Below are positions 2,574-46,270 of a DNA stretch of 64,000 nt, one piece after another. Location: positions 29,193 through 93,192 of IMG/VR virus record IMGVR_UViG_3300017917_004390. One strand, given 5' to 3'. The stretch is from a virus. Each line of letters opens with the position of its first letter. Positions within the stretch are counted from its first letter, which is position 1. Below the pieces are notes generated by a model that had not been told where the DNA came from, ran no database searches, and saw only the letters and a list, made by a program, of their open reading frames with translations. Made by a program: the position numbers and the translations under genes.

Positions 2574-3992
2574 TTATTCTATAATTTTAAAATTTGTTTT
2601 ATTCGTATCACCAATTAAATTATTAAATTCATCATAAAATCCAGCTTCAATAGTATAAAAATTTGGTATAAACCATTTTAAGTCTATAATATCATAAAAA
2701 GTATCATTTAATTTATTAGCAAGAGTCAAGGGTATTACATCTATTTGTTGAGTACCTTGTCTAACATATATTTTATATTTAAGATTTACTTTTAAATTTG
2801 TATATATTTTATTCTCATTTAAAAATTTTGAATTAAAAATTACTTTTTTAATTGAATCATTTCTTAAAACATCATTACTTTTAATACCATTAATACTAAT
2901 ATGAGTTTTAATACTACTATAATCAAATTCATCCTGATACTCCAATAAAGTGAATGAATTGGTTTGGTTTTTTAACTTGTTATTAATATTAAAATACCAA
3001 ACATCATTATAATTTTGATTTATTTCATAAATATCTGAATCAAAATTAACATCAATATAATAAGTTGAATTAAATTGTTTTTTTATGTTTTCAGTTATTG
3101 TTAAAGATGTAGTAACAGTAGTTAAAGTTAATGAACTTACAACTTGGTATGTTAAACTTGATATAGTTTGAACTATTTCACCGTTTTGATTTAAGATTTC
3201 AACTCTATCAACATTTGTTATCGGTTTTGAATAATTAAAAACTAATTTACTATTTGTATCAGAATATAAGTGGCACCTATCATCAATAATTGAGTTATCA
3301 TATACTGTTTCAAGATAAGGTTCAAAAAAAGTATAAGTGTATTTACTAAAAAAACTAACTGTATTTCTTACTTGGTCTAATATATTTTCAGTTGAACTAC
3401 TATATGCGATACCAAAACCACTAGTAGTTCCAGCTGAAAATAATATACTATTTATTTTTTCAGTTATATCTAAATCTATATTTTCATTACCAATAACAAA
3501 TCTTTGTGTATTTAAGATTGTTAAACCTGTTGATGTATTATCATAACAACCATTAATAGACCAAGGCTGATTATTTTTTCTATTAAACCAGTTTGGTGCT
3601 GTTTTATTAATATTTAAACTAATATTGTCAGTATAAATATAATCATATCCAGTACCTTCATCAAATTCCTCTGGAGATTCAAAAAGTATTAAATCAAAAC
3701 CAGAAGAACGTCTGGATTTAATCATATTAGTACCAATAAGTTCATCGTTAAGATTAATTACGTTTGTAAATTTTAATTTATGAGATAAAATTTTATTATT
3801 AGTTATTTCACCACTATTAATTTTTTCTATTAAAGGGTTTAAATCTATATTAAATAAATATCTACTAACATTAGTACTTGAACTAACAATTGAACCACCA
3901 TAACTTAACTCAATTACTGGGTTTCTACTATTATTAGAATATGAATTTTGTATAATGGTTGCTTGTTTATCAAAATAACTTCTGTGAATCAT
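2574..3992 (-). CDS. Putative virion structural protein
   Basis: 472 aa ORF rich in N/S/T, preceded by a CTATTTAT motif. Confidence 0.5.
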   Translation of the reverse strand: MIHRSYFDKQATIIQNSYSNNSRNPVIELSYGGSIVSSSTNVSRYLFNIDLNPLIEKINSGEITNNKILSHKLKFTNVINLNDELIGTNMIKSRRSSGFDLILFESPEEFDEGTGYDYIYTDNISLNINKTAPNWFNRKNNQPWSINGCYDNTSTGLTILNTQRFVIGNENIDLDITEKINSILFSAGTTSGFGIAYSSSTENILDQVRNTVSFFSKYTYTFFEPYLETVYDNSIIDDRCHLYSDTNSKLVFNYSKPITNVDRVEILNQNGEIVQTISSLTYQVVSSLTLTTVTTSLTITENIKKQFNSTYYIDVNFDSDIYEINQNYNDVWYFNINNKLKNQTNSFTLLEYQDEFDYSSIKTHISINGIKSNDVLRNDSIKKVIFNSKFLNENKIYTNLKVNLKYKIYVRQGTQQIDVIPLTLANKLNDTFYDIIDLKWFIPNFYTIEAGFYDEFNNLIGDTNKTNFKIIE

Positions 3993-4284: not shown

Positions 4285-4919
4285 TATAACATATTTTTTA
4301 TATCATTATCAGTTAATTGTCTTCCAATGGTATTATTCTGACCCTTTTGATTCTCATGATATTGAGGTGAATTATAATAGATATTAGGGTTTTCAGCTGA
4401 AACTCCATTTCTCTTTAAATAGTTTGACCAGTATTCATCAGGTGTTAACCCACCACTAATTTTAACCATTGTATTAAGTTGTTCAATAGGTAGTGGAGGT
4501 TCAAGTTTTTCAACTCTTTTTTCAAGATTATCAACCTTAGGTTCAATAACTTGTTGGATTGAATCAATTTCCATTTTATTATCTTTAACTACATTAGTTA
4601 AACGATTTACAAAATCAAAAAGTTGGTCAATTTTATTTGACTGTGTTTTTAATAAACTAACTGTAAGAGCATCAACATCATCATCCTTTTTTTCAATTTC
4701 AACATCAGTTTTATTTTCAATTGGCTCAGGAACAACTTGTTCGTTTTCAGTTTCATCTTCTACTGTTGATTCATCACCCATAGCTTTATTAAGATTACTA
4801 ATAATCTTTTTATCAAGTTCTTCATTATCAAAGTCATCAGGTTTCTGATTAACTCCACTTTTTATTTGAAATTCAAAAAGGTAATTAAATTTGTCAATAT
4901 CTGTTAGTTTTTTTTTCAT
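4284..4919 (-). CDS. Hypothetical coiled-coil protein
   Basis: 211 aa acidic ORF. Confidence 0.65.
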   Translation of the reverse strand: MKKKLTDIDKFNYLFEFQIKSGVNQKPDDFDNEELDKKIISNLNKAMGDESTVEDETENEQVVPEPIENKTDVEIEKKDDDVDALTVSLLKTQSNKIDQLFDFVNRLTNVVKDNKMEIDSIQQVIEPKVDNLEKRVEKLEPPLPIEQLNTMVKISGGLTPDEYWSNYLKRNGVSAENPNIYYNSPQYHENQKGQNNTIGRQLTDNDIKNML

Positions 4920-11304: not shown

Positions 11305-13935
11305 TTATCTTCCGTATTTATCTTTTTTAAGTTGTACTACAACTTCACGTGTAATTTTTTTAATAATTTTTTCATCGCCAATATCTATAGTGTTGTTAAT
11401 CACAAAATTAGCTTTCATTTTTTCATCAAATTGTACCTTCAAAGGTTCTTTAAGAATTTTTTGTAAATTGTCTAATTTATTACTTTCAAGCGTTTTAATA
11501 TCACTAATAAGACTTTGAATTGCAGCTGCTTTTTTAGTGTCTATATTTATAAAATCATTTAAAACTTTAATTTGATTTAAATTATTAAAATTAATTTTAC
11601 TAATATCATATAGTATTTTAGAGACAACACTAAGTTTATTTATACTTTCAAAAACACTGTTTATACTTGAGAAATTTTTAAAATCAATACTCATATCAGA
11701 TAAATCACCAAATGCTTCTGACAAATCAGAAATTTTAGATAGATTTAGACCTGATATATTATTTAAAGATTGATATATATTATTTAAATTTATTGGTATA
11801 TTGGGGTTACCTAATAAAGATAAATTTTTAGCTGCAAATCCAACGGCTGATGTCATCATCGTAAATTCTACCGCTAACAATGAAACAGTTGCTAATAAAG
11901 CACCAAAACCTAAAGCACCATAACCAGTTGCTAGTATAGCACCAAAACTTTCAGCTGCAACAGCAAGTATACCTGTAAAACCGATAATACCAATACCTAA
12001 TCTTGTTATAGTACCATTTAATAAATCTATTTGTTCAGGTGATAATTCTTTAAATGATTTGGCCATAGAACTAACACCCTCAGATGCCAATTTAAAACCA
12101 TAACCCATACCAATCGCTGCAACACCTAAACCAGCTAATTTTGCTGCCGAACCAAAACCGCCAAGCATCATATCTTTACCAGAACCTAACATACCACCAG
12201 CAGACCCGATAGAACTACTTGCTTTTGATAATGGTAATATTTTACTTAATAAGTTTGAAAATTTACCAGTAAAAATATTTAACATACCACCAAAACCAGC
12301 AAACACAGCTTTAAGAAGACCAGCACCAGTTATAATACCAGCAATCATAGCAATAGCCACACCTTTGCTACCAAAAGTTTCTTTTATTGATGTAGTAGCG
12401 GTCCTAAGTGTGGATAAACTACTATTAAGTAATTCAATAACAGGTAATAACAAACTTTTGGTTTCTTCAACTAAATCAGATAAAGCTTCATTAAAACTTC
12501 TACTATCAACAGCCCTATCCTCAAGCGTTTTTTGTTGAGCGTCAAACAATTTCAATTGTTCTTTTGTTAAGTCTTTAAGAGCGACTTCATTACCATCAAT
12601 TTTAATAACAGCAACACCATTTCTTTTTGATGATAATTCAGCCAAATTAGCTAACATTTCTCTTTGTTTTTCATTACCAATAAATATCTGACTCTTATTA
12701 AAATTAACTTGTGCCGCTTTTTTTGCTGCCTCAGTTAGTTCATTTAAAGGTATTGAAGTCGCCTCAGCAACAGCACGTAATCTATCAAAATCAATATCAC
12801 TTATTTTATCAAATGAATTAGTTTCTTTGTTAAAACTAGCGATATTTGATGTTAGTTTACCCAATTCTTTATTAAACTCAGCCGGATTATTTCTAGCTAA
12901 AAATGAAAATTTAAATGGGTCAATTTTAGCGAATTCACCACCTAAAACCATTAGTTGTGCTGAAGCATCTAACATACCTTCAATAGTTCTAAATTTTTCA
13001 ATAACTGAAAAAGTAGAATTCATTGAAATTCTTGTTTGTTCAGCAAACTGAGCTAATTTTTTGAAATCTTCAATACCATTTTGAAATCTAAACTTTTTAT
13101 ATTGTTCTAAATTTTGAGATATATTTTTTAAAATTTTACCTGAATTTAACCCTAAACTATCAAATTCATTAACAGAGTTTTCTATACCAGTTTTAATATC
13201 GTTAACACCATAACCCATTAAACTAAATTCACCTACTAATTTAGATGCCTCATCAACCCCTAAACTAGTACCTTTAGCTATTGCAACGATATTTTTTAGT
13301 TGGTCTGATGTATAATTCCTAGTTAAACCATTTATATCAGCAATATTTTGTTGTATTTTAACAACATCTTCCAATCTACCACCCATTTCAGCAATAAGGA
13401 TATTAGTATTGAAGGTTTCATTTTTAATATTAGAAGCTGATACGCCTGAATCACCAAAATTTAGAATTAATTGTTTTGTTAATTCATCGGCTTTATTAAG
13501 ATAACTCCATAATTCAGATACAGCAAATGTTGTAGCTGCAAATGCTATTAAGTTTGTTTGTAATGATGTACCAATTGATTTTGTCAATGAAACATTTTCT
13601 TGTAAAACACTAATTGAACGTTCATTTAATCTAAGAGTTTTTTGAACAGTTTCATAGTGCCTTTCCAATTCAGCTAAACGTCTTTTTTCTATTTCACTTA
13701 ACTGTTGTTCATTAGCTTTATATTCTTCAATTGAATCACTTAGAGCTGAAATATACTCATTCATTTTTTTCTGCGACTTAATCATTTGATTAAGTTCTTT
13801 TTTTGCAGAAAAATAACCTTTCAGTGTTGATGATTGTTGTTCTAAAATACTAGACAGTTTTTCTTCAAGCTCAATTTGTTCTTGAACTGCACGAATATTC
13901 TCATATCTTTTATTTAATTCATCACCAATAGCCAT
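11305..13935 (-). CDS. Tail tape measure protein
   Basis: 876 aa, coiled-coil N-terminus, Ala/Gly-rich hydrophobic central segments, near the gp26-like gene. Confidence 0.8.
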   Translation of the reverse strand: MAIGDELNKRYENIRAVQEQIELEEKLSSILEQQSSTLKGYFSAKKELNQMIKSQKKMNEYISALSDSIEEYKANEQQLSEIEKRRLAELERHYETVQKTLRLNERSISVLQENVSLTKSIGTSLQTNLIAFAATTFAVSELWSYLNKADELTKQLILNFGDSGVSASNIKNETFNTNILIAEMGGRLEDVVKIQQNIADINGLTRNYTSDQLKNIVAIAKGTSLGVDEASKLVGEFSLMGYGVNDIKTGIENSVNEFDSLGLNSGKILKNISQNLEQYKKFRFQNGIEDFKKLAQFAEQTRISMNSTFSVIEKFRTIEGMLDASAQLMVLGGEFAKIDPFKFSFLARNNPAEFNKELGKLTSNIASFNKETNSFDKISDIDFDRLRAVAEATSIPLNELTEAAKKAAQVNFNKSQIFIGNEKQREMLANLAELSSKRNGVAVIKIDGNEVALKDLTKEQLKLFDAQQKTLEDRAVDSRSFNEALSDLVEETKSLLLPVIELLNSSLSTLRTATTSIKETFGSKGVAIAMIAGIITGAGLLKAVFAGFGGMLNIFTGKFSNLLSKILPLSKASSSIGSAGGMLGSGKDMMLGGFGSAAKLAGLGVAAIGMGYGFKLASEGVSSMAKSFKELSPEQIDLLNGTITRLGIGIIGFTGILAVAAESFGAILATGYGALGFGALLATVSLLAVEFTMMTSAVGFAAKNLSLLGNPNIPINLNNIYQSLNNISGLNLSKISDLSEAFGDLSDMSIDFKNFSSINSVFESINKLSVVSKILYDISKINFNNLNQIKVLNDFINIDTKKAAAIQSLISDIKTLESNKLDNLQKILKEPLKVQFDEKMKANFVINNTIDIGDEKIIKKITREVVVQLKKDKYGR

Positions 13936-37914: not shown

Positions 37915-38116
37915 ATTATTTAGAGGTACTTTTTGGGGAATACCAAAATATGCTCTTTATTTTCTAGGTATTATATTACCTATAACAATTATTGATAGAA
38001 TTTTTGAAACAATAGTGATAAGTGAAATAACTTATTTGTGGATTAGTATAATCGCTTTTACTTTATTTTTTATTTCTTTTATTTGGAATATTATTTGGCG
38101 AAAATTCGATAATTAA
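37904..38116 (+). CDS. Small membrane protein
   Basis: Two hydrophobic segments; probable start MLNKLF. Confidence 0.5.
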   Translation: MLNKLFRGTFWGIPKYALYFLGIILPITIIDRIFETIVISEITYLWISIIAFTLFFISFIWNIIWRKFDN

Positions 38117-38144
38117 AACAAAAACATTATAAAATAACTTAAAA

Positions 38145-38182
38145 CCCTGTATATTTGTAATACAAAAATACAGGGATTTTTT
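38145..38182 (+). terminator. Long hairpin with T tail upstream of nrdB, containing TATATTTG
   Basis: ccctgtatatttgta-a-tacaaaaatacaggg followed by atttttt. Confidence 0.55.
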
Positions 38183-38194
38183 ATCTTAAAACAA

Positions 38195-39142
38195 ATGGAA
38201 AAAATATTAGAACAAAACGAAAATAGATTTGTATTATTCCCAATACAACATCAAGACTTATGGGATTTATATAAAACAGCTGAGGCTGCTTTTTGGACAA
38301 CTCATGAAATTGATTTATCTAACGACATGAAAGATTGGGAAAAATTAACTGAAAATGAAAAATTCTTTATTAAAAACATCTTATCATTTTTTGCTGCATC
38401 AGACGGTATTGTAAATGAAAACTTAGCTGAAAACTTCCTTAGAGAAGTTGGTTATCCTGAGGCCAAGGCATTTTATGGATTTCAAATTATGATGGAGAAT
38501 ATTCACTCAGAAATGTATTCTTTATTAATTGATACTTACATTAAAGACCATACGGAAAAGATGGAATGTTTTAATGCCTTACAAAAACTTCCTATTGTAG
38601 CTAAAAAAGCTAAATGGGCTTTAGATTGGATTAAATCTGATAGTTTTGCAGAAAGACTAGTTGCTTTTGCAGCAGTTGAAGGTATTTTCTTTTCAGGGTC
38701 ATTTTGTTCAATTTTTTGGTTGAAAAAAAGACAACTAATGCCGGGTCTGTGTGATTCAAATGATTTCATTTCTCGTGATGAAGGTATGCATTGTGATTAT
38801 GCTATCCATCTATTAAATAATCACATCGAAAATAAACCATCTAAAGAGAAAATTCGTGAAATTTTCTTATCAGCGTTGGAGATTGAAAAAGAATTTGTTA
38901 GTGATTCACTACCTGTATCATTAATTGGTATGAATAAAGAACTTATGATTCAGTATCTTCAGTTTGTTGTTGACCAACTTTTAGTAAAGTTAGGTTGTTC
39001 AAAAGAATTTAATGTTACCCAACCTTTTGAATTTATGAATAATATTGCTTTGCAAGGTAAGAAAAACTTCTTTGAAAGAAGACCTAATGAATATAAAAAA
39101 GCCAATTTAACTGATAAAATAAGTTTTGAAGAAGATTTTTAA
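38195..39142 (+). CDS. nrdB: Ribonucleotide reductase class Ia beta subunit
   Basis: [30 protein letters not shown] and RDEGMH motifs. Confidence 0.97.
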
Positions 39143-39144
39143 TT

Positions 39145-40716
39145 ATGATTATTACAAAAAGAAACGGAACAAAAACAGAATTTAACCCTAATAAAATTCG
39201 TAATAGAATTAAAAAACAATCAGTAAATTTAAATATTGATACTGATAAATTATTCTTTTCAGTTATGAAAGGTATAGCTGATGATATGACTACAAAACAA
39301 ATTGATGATTTGATTGCTGAAACATCAGCATCAATGACAATGATTCATCCAGATTATTCAATATTAGCTGGAAATATTTGTATTAGTAGATTACATAAAG
39401 AAACTGAAGATGACATAATGAAAGTCTATAAAAAATTATATAAAGCAGATGCTTTAGATGAAGATTTTTATGAAAATCTTAAAACTCATTATCAGGATAT
39501 TAAAGACAAACTAGATTACACCAAAGATTATGGTGTAGATTATTTTGGTTGGACTAGATTACAAGAAGTGTATTTATTAAAATTAGGTGATGAAGTTGTT
39601 GAACGACCACAACAAATGTTTATGAGGGTTGCTTTAACAATTCATAAAAAAATTGAAGATATACTTGAACTATATTATGAATTATCAAATAAATATATTT
39701 CTAAGGCTACACCTATTTTAATTAATGCTGGTACTGATGTTAAGAGTTTGATATCGTGCAACTTAACTTTTAATAAGGGCGACACTACTGAGGACTTGCT
39801 TAAAACCATTAATAATATCGCTGTTAGCTCATCAAGAGCCGAAGGTATTGGATTAGCTATGCATAATATTCGTTCTAAGGAATCATCAGTAGGTAAGGGT
39901 TCTGGTAAAGCAGGTGGATTGTTGAAATACATTAAAGTTGTTAATGAAGCACTTCGTTTTTGGAACCAAAAAGGTAAAAGACCCGGTGCAGCGGCAATTT
40001 ATCTTGAACCTTGGCATAAAGATGTTTTTGACCTTCTTGATATTAGAAAAAATACAGGTAAAGAAGAACTAAGAGCAAGAGATTTATTCAGTGCTATGTG
40101 GACCTGTGATTTATTTATGGAGGCTGTTGAGAAAGATTCTGATTGGCATCTATTCTGTCCTAATGATATTAAAAAAGCTGGATTAAGACCTTTCTATGAA
40201 TTATATGGTGAAGATTTTAAAACTGAATATAATAAAGCTGTTGAATTGGGAATCGGTAAAAAAATTAAAGCACAAGACCTTTGGTATAAAATTTGTGAAT
40301 CTCAAATTGAAACTGGTATACCTTATATTGGATTTAAAGACCATGTAAATAGAAAGTCAGCACAAAAAAATATTGGTACCATTAAAAGTTCTAATTTATG
40401 TTTAAGTGAAGATACTGTACTTGATGTTATTATTGATGAAAAAAATGAAAAAATCGATATAAAAACTTGTATTGAATTACTTAAAATAAAAGATATTTTT
40501 GTTAAATCTTATGATATTAAAACTAATACAATTGAGTATCAAAAAATAACTAACGGTGCTTTAATGTCCAAAAAAGCGGAAGTATTAGAAATTATTGATG
40601 ATGAGACTGGTAAAAAAATAATTTGCACCCCTGAACATAAAATTTTTACCAAAAATAGAGGATATGTAATGGCAAAAGATTTGTTAGAAAGTGATAATTT
40701 ATGTGTTGATTTTTAA
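39145..40716 (+). CDS. nrdA: Ribonucleotide reductase alpha subunit, N-terminal part fused to split intein N-half
   Basis: ATP cone, ERPQ, TPILINAG, SCNL, QKGKRPGA, then SSNL|CLSEDT...IICTPEHKIFT. Confidence 0.95.
   Translation: MIITKRNGTKTEFNPNKIRNRIKKQSVNLNIDTDKLFFSVMKGIADDMTTKQIDDLIAETSASMTMIHPDYSILAGNICISRLHKETEDDIMKVYKKLYKADALDEDFYENLKTHYQDIKDKLDYTKDYGVDYFGWTRLQEVYLLKLGDEVVERPQQMFMRVALTIHKKIEDILELYYELSNKYISKATPILINAGTDVKSLISCNLTFNKGDTTEDLLKTINNIAVSSSRAEGIGLAMHNIRSKESSVGKGSGKAGGLLKYIKVVNEALRFWNQKGKRPGAAAIYLEPWHKDVFDLLDIRKNTGKEELRARDLFSAMWTCDLFMEAVEKDSDWHLFCPNDIKKAGLRPFYELYGEDFKTEYNKAVELGIGKKIKAQDLWYKICESQIETGIPYIGFKDHVNRKSAQKNIGTIKSSNLCLSEDTVLDVIIDEKNEKIDIKTCIELLKIKDIFVKSYDIKTNTIEYQKITNGALMSKKAEVLEIIDDETGKKIICTPEHKIFTKNRGYVMAKDLLESDNLCVDF
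40399..40713 (+). mobile_element. Split intein N-fragment (105 aa)
   Basis: Block A CLSEDT and block B CTPEHKIFTKNRGY, followed by a stop codon. Confidence 0.9.
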
Positions 40717-40758
40717 AACAACACATAAATTTCTACTATTTACTATAAATAGTAGAAA
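40696..40758 (+). promoter_or_regulatory. Two tandem hairpins with an embedded CTATTTAC motif before the endonuclease start
   Basis: aatttatgtgttg/caacacataaatt (40696-40731) and tttctactattta/taaatagtagaaa (40730-40758). Confidence 0.65.
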
Positions 40759-41792
40759 TGGAAATACAACGCTATACTAGAATAGATTTATTATACGATA
40801 ATGAAGAATTTTTAATTAATTTTGATAATGAGTTAAAAACACATTTACAAAATACTATCATGAATAAAAAAGAATATTACCGAGCTTTAAAATTTTTATA
40901 TAATAAAAATATTAAATCTTTTAAAGATTTCACTGATAAATATTCAAATGATGGTATTTACAAAATATGGAATAATACGAATTTTATTTTTAAAGATTTA
41001 GAAACTAAATTAAAATATATGATAATACCTTTTAAAGGTAAGAAAAGACCTAAACATTCTGAAATGATGAAAATAAAAATGTTGGGTATCGATAGAGGTG
41101 ATAATTTTAGAAAAATAAAAAATGAACAAAATAAAAGTATTAATTTCAAGAAAAAATTTTTACAAAATAAAAATATTAATATTGAAAATAAAACTGATGA
41201 AGAAGTATATAATATATACTGTGAATACATATCAAAAAGAAATAAAAGTGAAGAATTTAGAATAAATAAAATTAAAAAATTTTTAAAAAATGATAAATAT
41301 AAAAATGAAGAATTATATGAATATTTCAAAAATAAATATTTAAATATTAAATTAGATAATAAAAATTATGAAGAAATATATAGTGAAATGCTTAGTTTAA
41401 TTTCAATTATTGCTATTAAAAATAACGGCAATATGGGTAAAACTAATTATTTTAAAAAGGGTTTAATTAATACTAAATATTGTTTAAATAAAAGTATTAT
41501 AAGTTTTAGAAGTTCTTGGGAAGAAAAAACTATTCAATTTTTAGAAGAAAATAAAATAAAATACGAATATGAACCGATATATTTAGTCACTGATAATCAT
41601 AGATATTATTTACCTGATTTTATATTACCGGACCTTAAAATTATGCTAGAAATAAAAGGTTTTATTAGAGGTAAAGAAGGTGAAAAGAATGAAGAATTTA
41701 AAATTAAAGCGGCAAAACGCTATTGCGAAAAAAAGGGATTAAAATTTATTTATTTAAAAAACATATTAACAAATTTAAAACAATTAAATTAA
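40758..41792 (+). CDS. Free-standing putative homing endonuclease with C-terminal PD-(D/E)xK domain
   Basis: FRSSWE...YEYEP...YLPDF...LEIKG; Lys-rich N-terminus; located between the intein halves. Confidence 0.75.
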   Translation: MEIQRYTRIDLLYDNEEFLINFDNELKTHLQNTIMNKKEYYRALKFLYNKNIKSFKDFTDKYSNDGIYKIWNNTNFIFKDLETKLKYMIIPFKGKKRPKHSEMMKIKMLGIDRGDNFRKIKNEQNKSINFKKKFLQNKNINIENKTDEEVYNIYCEYISKRNKSEEFRINKIKKFLKNDKYKNEELYEYFKNKYLNIKLDNKNYEEIYSEMLSLISIIAIKNNGNMGKTNYFKKGLINTKYCLNKSIISFRSSWEEKTIQFLEENKIKYEYEPIYLVTDNHRYYLPDFILPDLKIMLEIKGFIRGKEGEKNEEFKIKAAKRYCEKKGLKFIYLKNILTNLKQLN

Positions 41793-41793
41793 A

Positions 41794-41895
41794 ATGGGTA
41801 TAAAAATTAACAAATTAACAACAAATATTCCAGTTTATGATATAACTGTCGAAAAAAATCATAATTTCTTTGCTAATGATATATTAGTACATAAC
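41794..41895 (+). mobile_element. Split intein C-fragment (34 aa)
   Basis: Blocks F/G ending in His-Asn before Cys+1. Confidence 0.9.
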
Positions 41896-42939
41896 TGTAT
41901 AGAAATCGTACAATATTCCGACCCTGAAACAACAGCACAATGTATTCTTAGTTCATTAGTATTACAATCATTTATTAAAAATGGTAAATTTGATTTTGCT
42001 AAATTAATCGAAAGTACAAGAATTATTGTAAAGTCTTTAAATAACCTCATTGATATCAATGAATATTCAACAGTAGAAGCCCGTAAAGGAGCCTCAGAGC
42101 AACGAGCTATTGCTATTGGTGTACAAGGTCTAGCTGATGTATTTGCTATCCTTAAACTTAGTTTTACATCGGAAGAAGCTAAGAAATTAAATAAAATGAT
42201 ATTTGAAACTATTTATTTTGCAGCATTAACAGAGTCAAATAGATTAGCTAAAGAAAATGGTATTGTTTATAAATATTTCAAAGGTTCACCATATGAAGAA
42301 GGTATTTTACAATTTGATATGTGGGGGTTAACTAAAGATGATTTACTTTGTGGTTATGATTGGGATTCACTAAAAGATTCTATTAAAACATATGGGTTAG
42401 CTAATTCATTAGTTACAGGTGCAATGCCTACTGCTAGTTCAGCAATTATCATTGGTTCTAATGAATCTTTTGAACCGTTTACTTATAATATTTATACCAG
42501 AGCAGGTATTGGTGGCGAACACATTATTATCAATAAATATTTAGTAAAAGAACTATCTGAAAGAGGCTATTGGATTGATGAAATCAGAAATGAAATTATT
42601 AAAAACAAGGGTTCTATCCAAAATATTCCTGTTTTAGATGATGATATTAAAGAACGTTATAGAACAGTATTTGAAATACCACAAAAAGAACTTCTTAATA
42701 TGGCTGCGGATAGGGGTGCTTTTATTGACCAATCTCAAAGTATGAATTTATATATGTCTACACCTACGATTGGTAAGTTAACTTCATCGCATTTCTATGC
42801 ATGGAAGAAAGGACTTAAAACGGGTGTTTATTATTTAAGAACTGAGGCTGTTGATAAGAAAACAACACACTTAGCTATCGATACAACAGAAAATAAAACT
42901 TCTAACGGTGATATAGATTGTTTTGGTTGTACAGCTTAA
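41794..42939 (+). CDS. nrdA: Split intein C-half fused to ribonucleotide reductase alpha C-terminal part
   Basis: VYDITVEKNHNFFANDILVHN|CIEIVQY, then CILSS, IGVQGLAD, MPTASS, DQSQS, GLKTGVYY and terminal CFGC. Confidence 0.95.
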   Translation: MGIKINKLTTNIPVYDITVEKNHNFFANDILVHNCIEIVQYSDPETTAQCILSSLVLQSFIKNGKFDFAKLIESTRIIVKSLNNLIDINEYSTVEARKGASEQRAIAIGVQGLADVFAILKLSFTSEEAKKLNKMIFETIYFAALTESNRLAKENGIVYKYFKGSPYEEGILQFDMWGLTKDDLLCGYDWDSLKDSIKTYGLANSLVTGAMPTASSAIIIGSNESFEPFTYNIYTRAGIGGEHIIINKYLVKELSERGYWIDEIRNEIIKNKGSIQNIPVLDDDIKERYRTVFEIPQKELLNMAADRGAFIDQSQSMNLYMSTPTIGKLTSSHFYAWKKGLKTGVYYLRTEAVDKKTTHLAIDTTENKTSNGDIDCFGCTA

Positions 42940-42957
42940 ATTTAATAAAACCCCAAT

Positions 42958-42989
42958 AAAAAACCCCATCTCAAAAAGGTGGGGTTTTT
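42958..42989. terminator. Bidirectional intrinsic terminator between convergent nrdA and tail tube genes
   Basis: aaaaaccccatc-tcaaaaa-ggtggggttttt. Confidence 0.8.
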
Positions 42990-43014
42990 AATTTTAAAAT
43001 ATTGGAATGAGATA

Positions 43015-43530
43015 TTAATAGTTCAATTCAGCATAAGGGAAACGAATTGTAACTTTAATTTTTTGTACTTCATCTGAACTCATATCGTTATTACCATAAT
43101 CGACATTTGATATTTGACAATGGTACAATGTCCATTGTTGAGTTCCTATAAGTGTAGGGTCTAATGCAGATAAACGAATATTTTTCTTATAACCAGCAGC
43201 ATAACCCATACGACCTGTAAGTGGTTCAATATGTAATCTAACCCATTCTTGTACTTTTTGTGCTGTTGATGGTCCAATAACATCAAGAATTTCGAAAGTA
43301 ATAGGTTCGAAACTATATTTACCAGCAACATAATCTTCAGTATTCAAGAAATCGATTTTTACATCGTTAATCTTGATTTTAGGTCTGTCAGTCATCTGAA
43401 TTAGATACGTGACATCATTGTTTGGGCCAACCCCACTTTGCAGTGGGTTCCCATCATCAAAACTCATTTCAAACCTATTAATTAAATAGGGTTCATTGTT
43501 AATTGGTACACCTCTTAGTCCTCTTGCCAT
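43015..43530 (-). CDS. gp19: Tail tube protein (gp19-like)
   Basis: 171 aa downstream of the sheath gene; NRF, RPKI, YVAGK, VQEW and GYKKNI motifs. Confidence 0.85.
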   Translation of the reverse strand: MARGLRGVPINNEPYLINRFEMSFDDGNPLQSGVGPNNDVTYLIQMTDRPKIKINDVKIDFLNTEDYVAGKYSFEPITFEILDVIGPSTAQKVQEWVRLHIEPLTGRMGYAAGYKKNIRLSALDPTLIGTQQWTLYHCQISNVDYGNNDMSSDEVQKIKVTIRFPYAELNY

Positions 43531-43564
43531 TTTTATTTCTTTTTAATTATATATAGTAATTTTA

Positions 43565-46270
43565 TTATCTTTGTTTAACTGAGAATGTGAAACCTATTGA
43601 TTCTAATGTACCAGTTGGTGTTAATTCTACTTTGAAATAAGCTTCGTTTCTAGCTAAAGCCTCAGGAGTAGTCAAAGTACTATCAAAAGATACTGTATAA
43701 CTAACTAAACCTCTATCATTTTTAATAAGTTGAAGTTCTTTATTAGTTTCTCTAATAACACTATCAATAGTATTTTGGTCATTAGGGTCAAAGTTTAACG
43801 TAATAGCTTTAATATATGTTCTTTGTTTCGCAAACAATACTAAACGTCTAACATCAATTCTACTTAATGGAGTATCAACACCTACACCAATTGATTCTAA
43901 GGTTTTATTACCCCAAATTACAACACCATCAACACTAAATTTACGAAGAGGGTTAATATCATTTTGATATAATGTATCACAATCACCATCTTTAAAAACA
44001 GTTTTAACATCTTGCAAATTAGAAAGTTTACCACGTTTTAGACCACCAAATGATGTCCAAGCGTTATTAGTTTTATCAGATTTTGCGATAGCCTTTAAAA
44101 TTTCACCAGTAGGTGGAATCCAAACGTTGACATTATTATCAGTATCACGTTTTCTACCGTATGGAGCAAATGTACAACCAAAAGAAGTATTTAATTCAGC
44201 AGCATCTTTGTAAGATACAAGCCTTTCAGCTATAACATTTGATTTTTCATTAATACCAGAAGTACTAACATCAGGCGAATCAATAATATATAAACAATCC
44301 TCACGTACTTCTTCAACAATTCTAATAGCTTCTTTAACTAACAATGTATTATTATACCAGTCAATACCCGGTGTAGCAAACAAGTTAATTGGGAAGTTTT
44401 GAATAGTTTCAAAAGTTTCAAAACCTTCAACATAAGAATTAAAATCTGAATTAGTAAATGCATTTACACCACCTTGACCGTAAGAATCATCAGTAGTTCT
44501 TGATGTTCTATGAACATCCCAACCATCAAACCCACCAGCTGGTACTACTGTAAATTTACGCTTATTAATATCCGAGTAAACACCTGTTGAAACTGATGCA
44601 GCCTCTCTAATTTCACCTAAACCAGTTTCAAATGAACCAATAAACGCTGTTGCACTTGTGAATGAACCAGTTGCACCAGAATCTAAGTGAAACCCATTAG
44701 ATTTAGTATAAGAAGTTGTAACATTTACAGCACCATTAAAGTTAAATAAATTCTGATTGATACCTAAACCTTTTCTAGCTGCGGTTGTGTACCCTTTTTC
44801 AGATAAACCTAAATAAGTTTTACCTACTTTATCAGTTGTACTGTATGATGTTTTATAAATAATTTTAGGTGGTTTTGCTGTTGAACTACCAGTTTGAGAA
44901 CTATCAAATGAGCGTAAGTTGTACCCTTCAAAACCACAAGGAACAGCATCAATTGGTGCGTCAATATTTACTACAACATAAATATAAGATGATTTTGAAC
45001 TTTCTAAGAAAGTAGTTTCATCATCAGATAAAGAACCACCAATTCTTTTTAAAACAAAATTATTTGAATTTGGATTTAGATTACATCTTGAGAAAATTTC
45101 TAAAACCGATGGATTATCATCTGTATCATTGAAATCTCTAACTACAACATCAAATAAGTTGTTAATAACGTCAATATTTTCGATTGAAATTTTAACTAAT
45201 TTATTAGCTGAATCACCATCACTAAATAAAACGAATTTAAATAATCTAAATAATGAATTTGAACGTAACTCAGATACTAACCAAGGTGTTTCAGGTGAAG
45301 TGTATGATGAATGATAATTTGTAAATGATGTACCAGTCAGTTTAACCAACCCATTTACTTTATACATACTACCATCAGTACCAATTTTAGAAAGTAAATC
45401 CGGATAAATTGATTCAAGATACAAATTAGATTTACTATCTTTAGGGTGTGAACCTAATACATTACCGATAAATGATTTTTTTGCTGGGTCTAATGTAAAA
45501 GAAACCACTTCATTTAAAGAAGGACCGGATGCACTTAAAGTAAGTGTATTAAATGGATTACCTGATGTTGATGATACGTCACTAAGTATTAAATCATTAA
45601 TTTTAAAATTTAAATCATCACCTATATAATCGGCTCTACTTCTAATAATAGCGACAACCATATCATCATATTCACCTAATGATGTACCAGATATTGTTGT
45701 TGCTGTATAATCATAAGTACCTGAAAATGGTTTAGATACGTTATCAAAATAAGTTACATTTAAATCTATTTTAGTTCCAGTAAATGTTGAACCAGATTTG
45801 TTAAGTATAAAACCTGTACTATAAGGTCCAACACTAGTAATTGTTATACCTGATATTAAGGTAAGACTATTAGATGTAAAACTAACACTACTACCAGTAT
45901 TAATTGATGTTACACCACTTGTTACTTTATTAAGACCACCACCAACGGTGATTGCCCAACCAGTACCAGCATCATAACCTGTTTTACCTAAAACACGGCT
46001 AACATATAATTGATTACCTTCTTCAAGGAAGGGTAAAGCATAATAAGGTAGTAAATATTTATATTTATCACCTAATTTTTCAGTAGACATCCCACCAAAG
46101 TATTTTCTAAACTCAGAGTTATTACTAACTAAAATAGGTGAAAACGCTGGACCAATAGTTGTTTCACCAACTAAACCTAACGAAGTAATACCTAATGTTT
46201 GCTGAGTCACAATTTGTTCTGCCTTTTCTAAAAATTTTACGTTTGGAGATTTAAAAGTTAATTGTGCCAT
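43565..46270 (-). CDS. gp18: Contractile tail sheath protein (gp18-like)
   Basis: SPNV.F.E, GLVGET..GP, GGFDG, ATPG, WIPPTG, IWGNKTL and RIDVRRL motifs. Confidence 0.93.
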   Translation of the reverse strand: MAQLTFKSPNVKFLEKAEQIVTQQTLGITSLGLVGETTIGPAFSPILVSNNSEFRKYFGGMSTEKLGDKYKYLLPYYALPFLEEGNQLYVSRVLGKTGYDAGTGWAITVGGGLNKVTSGVTSINTGSSVSFTSNSLTLISGITITSVGPYSTGFILNKSGSTFTGTKIDLNVTYFDNVSKPFSGTYDYTATTISGTSLGEYDDMVVAIIRSRADYIGDDLNFKINDLILSDVSSTSGNPFNTLTLSASGPSLNEVVSFTLDPAKKSFIGNVLGSHPKDSKSNLYLESIYPDLLSKIGTDGSMYKVNGLVKLTGTSFTNYHSSYTSPETPWLVSELRSNSLFRLFKFVLFSDGDSANKLVKISIENIDVINNLFDVVVRDFNDTDDNPSVLEIFSRCNLNPNSNNFVLKRIGGSLSDDETTFLESSKSSYIYVVVNIDAPIDAVPCGFEGYNLRSFDSSQTGSSTAKPPKIIYKTSYSTTDKVGKTYLGLSEKGYTTAARKGLGINQNLFNFNGAVNVTTSYTKSNGFHLDSGATGSFTSATAFIGSFETGLGEIREAASVSTGVYSDINKRKFTVVPAGGFDGWDVHRTSRTTDDSYGQGGVNAFTNSDFNSYVEGFETFETIQNFPINLFATPGIDWYNNTLLVKEAIRIVEEVREDCLYIIDSPDVSTSGINEKSNVIAERLVSYKDAAELNTSFGCTFAPYGRKRDTDNNVNVWIPPTGEILKAIAKSDKTNNAWTSFGGLKRGKLSNLQDVKTVFKDGDCDTLYQNDINPLRKFSVDGVVIWGNKTLESIGVGVDTPLSRIDVRRLVLFAKQRTYIKAITLNFDPNDQNTIDSVIRETNKELQLIKNDRGLVSYTVSFDSTLTTPEALARNEAYFKVELTPTGTLESIGFTFSVKQR

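Follow-up and report, generated by a model that had tools for sequence, protein, structure and literature searches.

A fractured nrdA gene with a putative split intein and a free-standing endonuclease gene in a large, AT-rich phage

A 64,000-nucleotide (nt) stretch of viral DNA (IMG/VR record IMGVR_UViG_3300017917_004390, positions 29,193 to 93,192; called the window hereafter) carries an nrdA gene, encoding the large subunit of ribonucleotide reductase (RNR), that is broken into two open reading frames (ORFs) with a third ORF between them. The locus was read from a metagenomic contig. The record is a 93-kb fragment, estimated to be about 30% complete, and the host of the locus is a large, AT-rich, uncultured phage. 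The sequence features suggest that this is a functional 'fractured' nrdA, in which the two pieces would be rejoined by trans-splicing of a split intein and a free-standing homing-type endonuclease gene is located between them. We put the probability of this reading at about 85%. Computation shows how the ORFs are arranged, what they are homologous to, that their catalytic residues are conserved, that the layout recurs in many contigs and that an RNA hairpin stands in front of the endonuclease gene. A fractured nrdA with an intervening endonuclease gene is of a kind already known, as a model's earlier reading of the DNA (the sequence-only reading) had said (PMC2677866).

All three ORFs are on the plus strand. 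ORF 1 (39145..40716, 523 amino acids (aa)) encodes the N-terminal part of NrdA, followed by the N-terminal half of the intein (IntN). The 418-aa N-extein (39145..40398) covers the ATP-cone, the all-alpha domain and the first barrel half, as judged from Pfam and from PHROG 84 and 3987, and its C-terminal end, K-S-S-N-L, is at 40398. IntN (105 aa, 40399-40713) is contiguous with the N-extein and begins with C-L-S-E-D-T, the Cys being encoded at 40399; a TAA stop codon follows at 40714-40716. After a spacer of 41 nt comes ORF 2 (40758..41792), the putative free-standing homing endonuclease gene of 344 aa, which matches Pfam Phage_endo_I and is in a reading frame different from that of the nrdA pieces. 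ORF 3 (41794..42939, 381 aa) starts 1 nt past the endonuclease stop codon (TAA-A-ATG). Its first 34 residues (41794..41895, M-G-I-K-I ... V-H-N) form the C-terminal intein half (IntC), so that IntN and IntC, with the TAA of the former and the own ATG of the latter at 41794, are on separate polypeptides. The remaining 347 aa and the stop codon (41896..42939) form the C-extein, which starts with C-I-E-I-V-Q-Y, ends with the C-F-G-C redox pair and was assigned by alignment to human RRM1. The sequence-only reading had described an SSNL end of NrdA-N followed by a 105-aa IntN and a stop, a separate 344-aa ORF, and a new ATG with a 34-aa IntC ending in HN before CIEIVQY. Compared with the ORF list and the sequence, every length was exact, and so were the residues named at both intein-bearing ends.

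The gene break is located directly before the thiyl-radical Cys (SSNL / C-I-E-I), in the N-L-C-x-E loop, and the same Cys is the +1 splicing nucleophile. When the C-extein was aligned with residues 427-743 of human RRM1 (E 1.8e-105), the +1 Cys fell on C429 and the next Glu on E431, which we take to be the thiyl-radical Cys and the catalytic Glu of class I RNRs. This agrees with the proposal of the sequence-only reading that joining at SSNL/C restores the N-L-C-x-E loop with the radical Cys as the +1 residue. The joined chain would be a class Ia RNR alpha chain of 765 aa. As aligned to human and yeast R1, it would retain the catalytic Cys/Asn/Cys/Glu/Cys residues, the Y-Y pair and the C-terminal C-x-x-C, with an S-C-N-L motif at NrdA residue 204 and a terminal C-F-G-C. 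The ATP-cone, the all-alpha domain, the ten-stranded barrel and the catalytic residues that define class Ia NrdA were all found, spread over the two ORFs. ORF 1 matched the Pfam families ATP-cone, Ribonuc_red_lgN, Ribonuc_red_lgC (positions 2-213) and Intein_splicing (positions 7-94), while ORF 3 matched Intein_splicing (positions 125-155) and Ribonuc_red_lgC (positions 193-523). By these ranges, the two ORFs complete each other both as an RNR barrel and as a HINT domain.

The two intein halves contain the blocks of a class 1 intein. In an alignment of 20 relatives the mean column identity was only 51%, yet all splicing residues were invariant. These were Cys1 of block A, directly after the N-extein; the T, P and H of block B (T-P-E-H) in IntN; and the V-Y-D, the H-N and the +1 Cys of blocks F and G (V-Y-D ... 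V-H-N / C). IntN also matched the solved structure of the NrdJ-1 split intein (PDB 8ubs, E 3.9e-12). These observations support a candidate naturally split intein at the radical-Cys site of nrdA. By sequence comparison, the pair is a new allele of the characterised NrdA-2 family. It has the S-N-L/C junction of NrdA-2 and shares with it about 49% of the residues in IntN and about 64% in IntC (a manual count against the sequence printed in a supplement of PMC7090010). The sequence-only reading had called the pair a possible new orthogonal split intein. By comparison with published split inteins the allele is new, the family having already been characterised with NrdA-2.

The same architecture recurred widely. 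A scan of viral contigs with IntN revealed 142 loci that encode relatives, and 80 of these were kept for script analysis. Among the 80, nearly all IntN relatives were at S-N-L / C of an RNR gene, and most loci had a stop 0-7 codons past IntN and a new Met-start ORF 33-34 residues before H-N / C. The stop/start architecture was common to dozens of independent contigs from different samples. In the relatives, the endonuclease stop was separated from the IntC start by a gap of 1-11 nt or overlapped it, which suggests that the downstream start site moves together with the cassette, as proposed in PMC2677866. The slot between the halves was variously occupied. In the majority of the other loci it held a GIY-YIG gene, and in the rest an HNH/NUMOD3 gene, an ORF of the PD-(D/E)xK type found here, an unassigned ORF or nothing. 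Three loci (L007, L032 and L037) were split with nothing between the halves, and L012 retained only an endonuclease remnant. Eleven loci were contiguous mini-inteins (e.g. L022 and L063), and judging by their linker, the split falls in the loop that separates block B from block F. Between the window and loci L004-L006, IntN was 58%, IntC 74% and the endonuclease 41% identical, compared with only 24-25% for the exteins. This better conservation of the intein and endonuclease fits a horizontal spread of the cassette.

The layout was also found in cultured phages. Yersinia phage vB_YenM_TG1 (NC_028820), a relative of the T4-like coliphages with a finished genome, has the same three-gene arrangement, with junctions Q-S-N-L / C-L-S-G-E-S and V-H-N / C-A-E-I. 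Its IntN and IntC are 44% and 64% identical to those of the window. The annotation merely lists two RNR genes and a 'homing endonuclease'. This endonuclease had no match in Pfam and is unrelated to the one in the window, the two being 23% identical when a global alignment is forced. The cultured jumbo phage Klebsiella phage KP13-7 has a fractured layout with a GIY-YIG gene. At this locus (OP617745.1, 30440-37505; L098), nrdA_1 and nrdA_2 are annotated with five 'hypothetical' genes between them. One of the five is the GIY-YIG gene, and the next begins with IntC and continues into the RNR barrel. The nrdA gene of KP13-7 appears to be broken more than once.

The protein encoded between the halves has a putative PD-(D/E)xK nuclease domain at about aa 227-344 (nt 41436-41789, plus strand). 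In its C-terminal third, Pfam Phage_endo_I (PF05367) matched marginally, with 30.5 bits against a cut-off of 29.1, and TnsA_N matched weakly; the relative at locus L091 scored under the PF05367 cut-off. In the alignment to T7 endonuclease I (1m0d), the E, P-D and E-x-K elements were all in register. A profile of 34 homologues, searched against the PDB, matched T7 endonuclease I (4.6e-9) and also Bax1, and E255, E272, D287, E298 and K300 were invariant in the 34 homologues, with no conserved His. In an AlphaFold2 (AF2) model (predicted local distance difference test score 91), residues 227-344 superposed with VIA-align on TnsA (Z 8.9), Vsr (1cw0, Z 7.0) and I-Bth0305I (3r3p, Z 6.4), and also on Bax1 and Hjc. 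This model points to a restriction-endonuclease-like fold for the C-terminal domain. A Foldseek search of the model against the PDB gave no match at E <= 0.001. The N-terminal ~225 aa were helical in the model. With VIA-align, residues 163-228 gave generic helical-bundle matches below a meaningful level, the first ~160 residues were barely covered, and the Pfam scan of the protein found no NUMOD motif.

Membership in the EDxHD/Vsr-like family, which is known from fractured genes (Dassa et al., PMC2677866; Taylor et al., PMC3239194), was considered and rejected. The active-site motif of the protein is the canonical E...P-D...E-x-K, in which Lys is present and a His serving as general base is absent, and its profiles matched T7 endonuclease I and Bax1. 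A Vsr match was absent from the Pfam results at E <= 0.1, and neither Vsr nor I-Bth0305I was matched in the profile and single-sequence searches of the PDB.

Full-length relatives of the endonuclease were few. A word search found 21, all unnamed, and 17 cluster representatives scored below 1e-30; more distant homologues amounted to 803 representatives at E <= 0.001. In 50,697 GenBank phage records no full-length homologue was found, and the nuclease domain alone matched, in resolvase-like genes. In viral contigs, all 12 relatives were located between IntN and IntC of RNR genes; of the searches aimed at the endonuclease itself, one with a six-sequence alignment as query found such loci and one with the single protein gave none. 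In a literature search that covered few subscription journals, we found no report of a T7-endonuclease-I-like or PD-(D/E)xK gene inside a split intein. The type of endonuclease is the only part of the locus that goes beyond the published descriptions found. We tentatively suggest, at a little under even odds, that the 344-aa ORF represents an undescribed homing endonuclease lineage. It would combine a canonical PD-(D/E)xK domain, similar to T7 endonuclease I and TnsA, with a helical N-terminal DNA-binding region. The lineage would have specialised in one site, that of the split inteins in RNR genes of phages, where it would compete with GIY-YIG and HNH genes for the slot.

A perfect hairpin with a 14-bp stem and a 3-nt loop is located at 40729..40759 on the plus strand, just upstream of the endonuclease gene. 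The RNA fold had an energy of -16.5 kcal/mol (z -6.8), and none of 200 shuffled sequences folded as well. At its 3' end the hairpin takes in the first two bases (A and U) of the start codon of the endonuclease gene. CTATTTAC (40736-40743) is in the 5' arm and TATAAATA (40744-40751) in the 3' arm. Similar hairpins preceded the endonuclease start in most of 18 related loci that were folded, whatever the endonuclease family, although those of L005/L006 and L020 were weak. Dassa et al. described hairpins in 15 of 16 fractured loci, ten of them with TATAAATA, and proposed, in analogy to mobE of Aeh1, that they attenuate translation (PMC2677866). The hairpin found here has the same position and the same motif. 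Burial of the start codon probably holds translation of the endonuclease down.

The two motifs in the hairpin arms were also counted over the window. CTATTTAY, which resembles the reverse complement of TATAAATA, had 24 copies, and 12 of these preceded a gene start on their own strand by 7-18 nt. The genes preceded by it include those for the tail sheath (46296, minus strand) and a PhoH-like protein (37131), as well as the endonuclease gene. TATAAATA occurred 53 times, compared with 37.6 +/- 6.5 copies expected. We considered TATAAATA as a late promoter of the T4 type, but this is uncertain, since only 3 of its 53 copies stood shortly before a gene on their own strand, in contrast to the 12 of 24 for CTATTTAY. 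The palindromic hairpin carries both motifs.

From these features we infer the following course of splicing, endonuclease activity and regulation. The two NrdA pieces would be translated separately. IntN would pair with IntC to build a HINT domain, and splicing in trans would follow the class 1 mechanism. An N-S acyl shift at Cys1 would come first, then trans-thioesterification onto the +1 Cys; the terminal Asn would next cyclise, and an S-N shift would complete the reaction. The product would be the 765-aa class Ia RNR alpha chain with the N-L-C-x-E loop restored. Because the +1 nucleophile is itself the thiyl-radical Cys, the unspliced pieces should be inactive, and the phage would depend on splicing. 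The endonuclease might spread the cassette into related RNR alleles during co-infection. The hairpin would lower its translation by burying the start codon, while also carrying the motif that recurs upstream of genes of this phage.

Several observations weigh against this interpretation. Both intein halves scored under the PF14890 cut-off of 35.8 bits (29.7 for positions 7-94 and 28.2 for positions 125-155), which can be attributed to each ORF holding only part of the domain. IntC has a net charge of 0 and IntN of -5, so electrostatic complementarity of the NrdA-2 kind is weaker here. This is the only RNR large-subunit locus in the incomplete record, but a second, intact RNR gene is possible elsewhere in the phage genome. 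The nuclease domain resembles junction-resolving enzymes, which are structure-specific and not sequence-specific, and the endonuclease has no characterised full-length relative. It is also conceivable that the NrdA pieces assemble non-covalently without splicing, with the intein halves serving as an association module. The nrdA gene of phage Aeh1, split by a homing endonuclease gene, works as two chains (PMC3045599, described in PMC2677866). However, Aeh1 has no intein, and association alone would not need the splicing residues that are invariant across divergent relatives. An unspliced complex would also leave a HINT domain of ~140 aa directly at the radical Cys, and the allelic NrdA-2 intein does splice (PMC7090010). 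We consider non-covalent assembly improbable, and to the same degree that nrdA is decaying, broken by a selfish element and without an active product. Decay has a precedent in Campylobacter phages, whose nrdA genes are degenerating and multiply interrupted (PMC3653736), and the possible second RNR in the missing part of the genome would allow it. Against it, both exteins are full length without internal stops, and none of the catalytic Cys, Asn and Glu residues, the Y-Y pair or the C-terminal C-x-x-C has been lost; the intein blocks and the nrdB gene directly upstream are also intact.

An error of assembly or sequencing could have broken a gene that in reality encodes a contiguous intein with an in-frame endonuclease domain, given that the source is a metagenomic contig and that NrdA-N and NrdA-C share one frame. 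The endonuclease ORF is nonetheless in another frame and has its own start codon, the 41-nt spacer and the hairpin, and the same stop/start layout was found in many independent contigs and likewise in Yersinia phage TG1, whose genome is finished. Group I introns are frequent in phage RNR genes (PMC3653736), and such an intron carrying the endonuclease gene might join the halves by RNA splicing. On either side of the insert, however, the DNA codes for conserved intein halves whose catalytic residues are all present, and an intron would have no need of these. The search of positions 38000-44000 against Rfam at E up to 1 gave no intron match, only three chance-level matches to unrelated families. 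With no group I intron detectable and the layout present in finished genomes of cultured phages, we regard an artefact and an in-frame endonuclease domain as very unlikely, and RNA splicing as the least likely of all. Trans-splicing of a fractured nrdA remains the explanation that we prefer.

The nrdB gene for the RNR small subunit (38195..39142, plus strand; Pfam Ribonuc_red_sm, E 1.7e-107) is directly upstream of the split nrdA, giving an nrdB-nrdA operon context. The N-terminal NrdA piece matched PHROG 3987 over profile positions 4-447 of 467, and the C-terminal piece matched PHROG 3844 over positions 107-449 of 451. Such near full-length matches to separate PHROGs imply that split nrdA halves are common enough in sequenced phages to form families. 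The NrdA exteins closest to those of the window, with ~50% identity, were at locus L091 (IMGVR_UViG_3300010357_001273). This locus has an endonuclease of the same family, whose ORF overlaps the IntC start by 10 nt, and a hairpin (3409-3443) built from the same CTATTTA / TAAATAG arms.

Further observations concern the DNA of the intein. The 8-mer TAAAACAA is present at the IntN stop (40714-40721) and a second copy (41776-41783) is found 11 nt short of the stop codon of the endonuclease gene. Locus L007, which lacks an endonuclease gene, holds a single copy (within 4322-4345), and the 19-nt spacer behind it is similar to the final 15 nt of the endonuclease gene of the window. The repeats could mark the cassette boundaries or reflect a microhomology deletion, and they may also be due to chance in DNA so rich in AT. 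At 41857-41898, where blocks F and G of IntC are encoded, 42 nt are 93% identical to a stretch inside the T4-gp43-like DNA polymerase genes of three Campylobacter phages (CP21, F379 and CJLB-13). It therefore seems that the same intein clade occupies different host genes. A match of 66 nt between this region and Klebsiella phage KP13-7 has 85% identity. A weak match to the intein C-terminal block was found elsewhere in the same virus record (11770-11868, minus strand; PF14890 positions 124-155, E 7.9e-4; L003). It is located inside an 857-aa open frame, ~17 kb before the start of the window.

In principle the locus adds little new biology, being a further clean case of a selfish endonuclease carried within a split intein where an essential enzyme is most conserved. 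It does provide a further natural split-intein pair of 105 + 34 geometry with Cys at +1, kin to the fast NrdJ-1 and NrdA-2 inteins, whose speed and orthogonality could be assayed in a screen of such pairs. The related loci make up a natural series at one site, with split inteins holding three or more endonuclease types, split inteins without one, a remnant and contiguous mini-inteins. This series is material on how inteins split and how endonuclease genes replace one another. With all 12 viral-contig relatives of the endonuclease at one site, its target is easily guessed. If the proposed lineage is real, it would be the third or fourth type of nuclease in fractured genes and a new scaffold for site-specific cleavage, possibly consisting of a monomer plus a targeting domain.

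Among known systems, the locus is most directly comparable with the fractured genes of Dassa et al. 2009 (PMC2677866), where seven loci, NrdA-1 to NrdA-7, are broken at the same site. The defining layout, adjacent same-strand ORFs with split-intein halves and a free-standing endonuclease gene between them, was found here. Shared with the seven loci are the host gene, the insertion directly before the radical Cys (S-N-L / C), the phage origin, the split into ~105 + 34 aa and the free-standing endonuclease gene between the halves. The hairpin with TATAAATA before the endonuclease start, and the endonuclease 3' end that abuts the IntC start, are shared as well. The window differs in that its intervening gene is neither GIY-YIG nor Vsr-like, the types published before, and in that its phage is very AT-rich, large and not cyanophage-like.

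According to Pinto et al. 2020 (PMC7090010), NrdA-2, with the same S-N-L/C junction, splices in cis with ~75-98% efficiency and also in trans, and it showed no cross-reaction in an in-vitro panel. NrdJ-1 (PDB 8ubs / 9omb) was the best solved-structure match of IntN, with ~40% identity over 92 residues in a manual alignment count, and over the final 12 residues its IntC and that of the window do not differ. However, NrdJ-1 belongs to a class II RNR, is inserted one residue further downstream and has Ser as the +1 residue (PMC2677866). Since the pair shares these 12 residues with NrdJ-1 and is an allele of the NrdA-2 family, the orthogonality suggested in the sequence-only reading is no more than a possibility.

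The endonuclease was compared with two characterised nucleases. I-Bth0305I of the EDxHD family (PMC3239194) has in common with it a free-standing gene inside split inteins, a restriction-endonuclease-like fold (predicted for the window protein) and a bipartite organisation with an N-terminal DNA-binding part, putative here, and a C-terminal nuclease. It differs in its composite E-D-x-H-D site with His as general base, whereas the window protein has Lys and lacks the His base. T7 endonuclease I (PF05367; 1m0d, 1fzr and 2pfj) shares the catalytic core residues, but it is a 149-aa single-domain, domain-swapped Holliday-junction resolvase. In the window protein the corresponding domain is the C-terminal third of 344 aa, preceded by ~225 extra N-terminal residues, and in contrast to T7 endonuclease I its relatives in viral contigs are all confined to the intein site.

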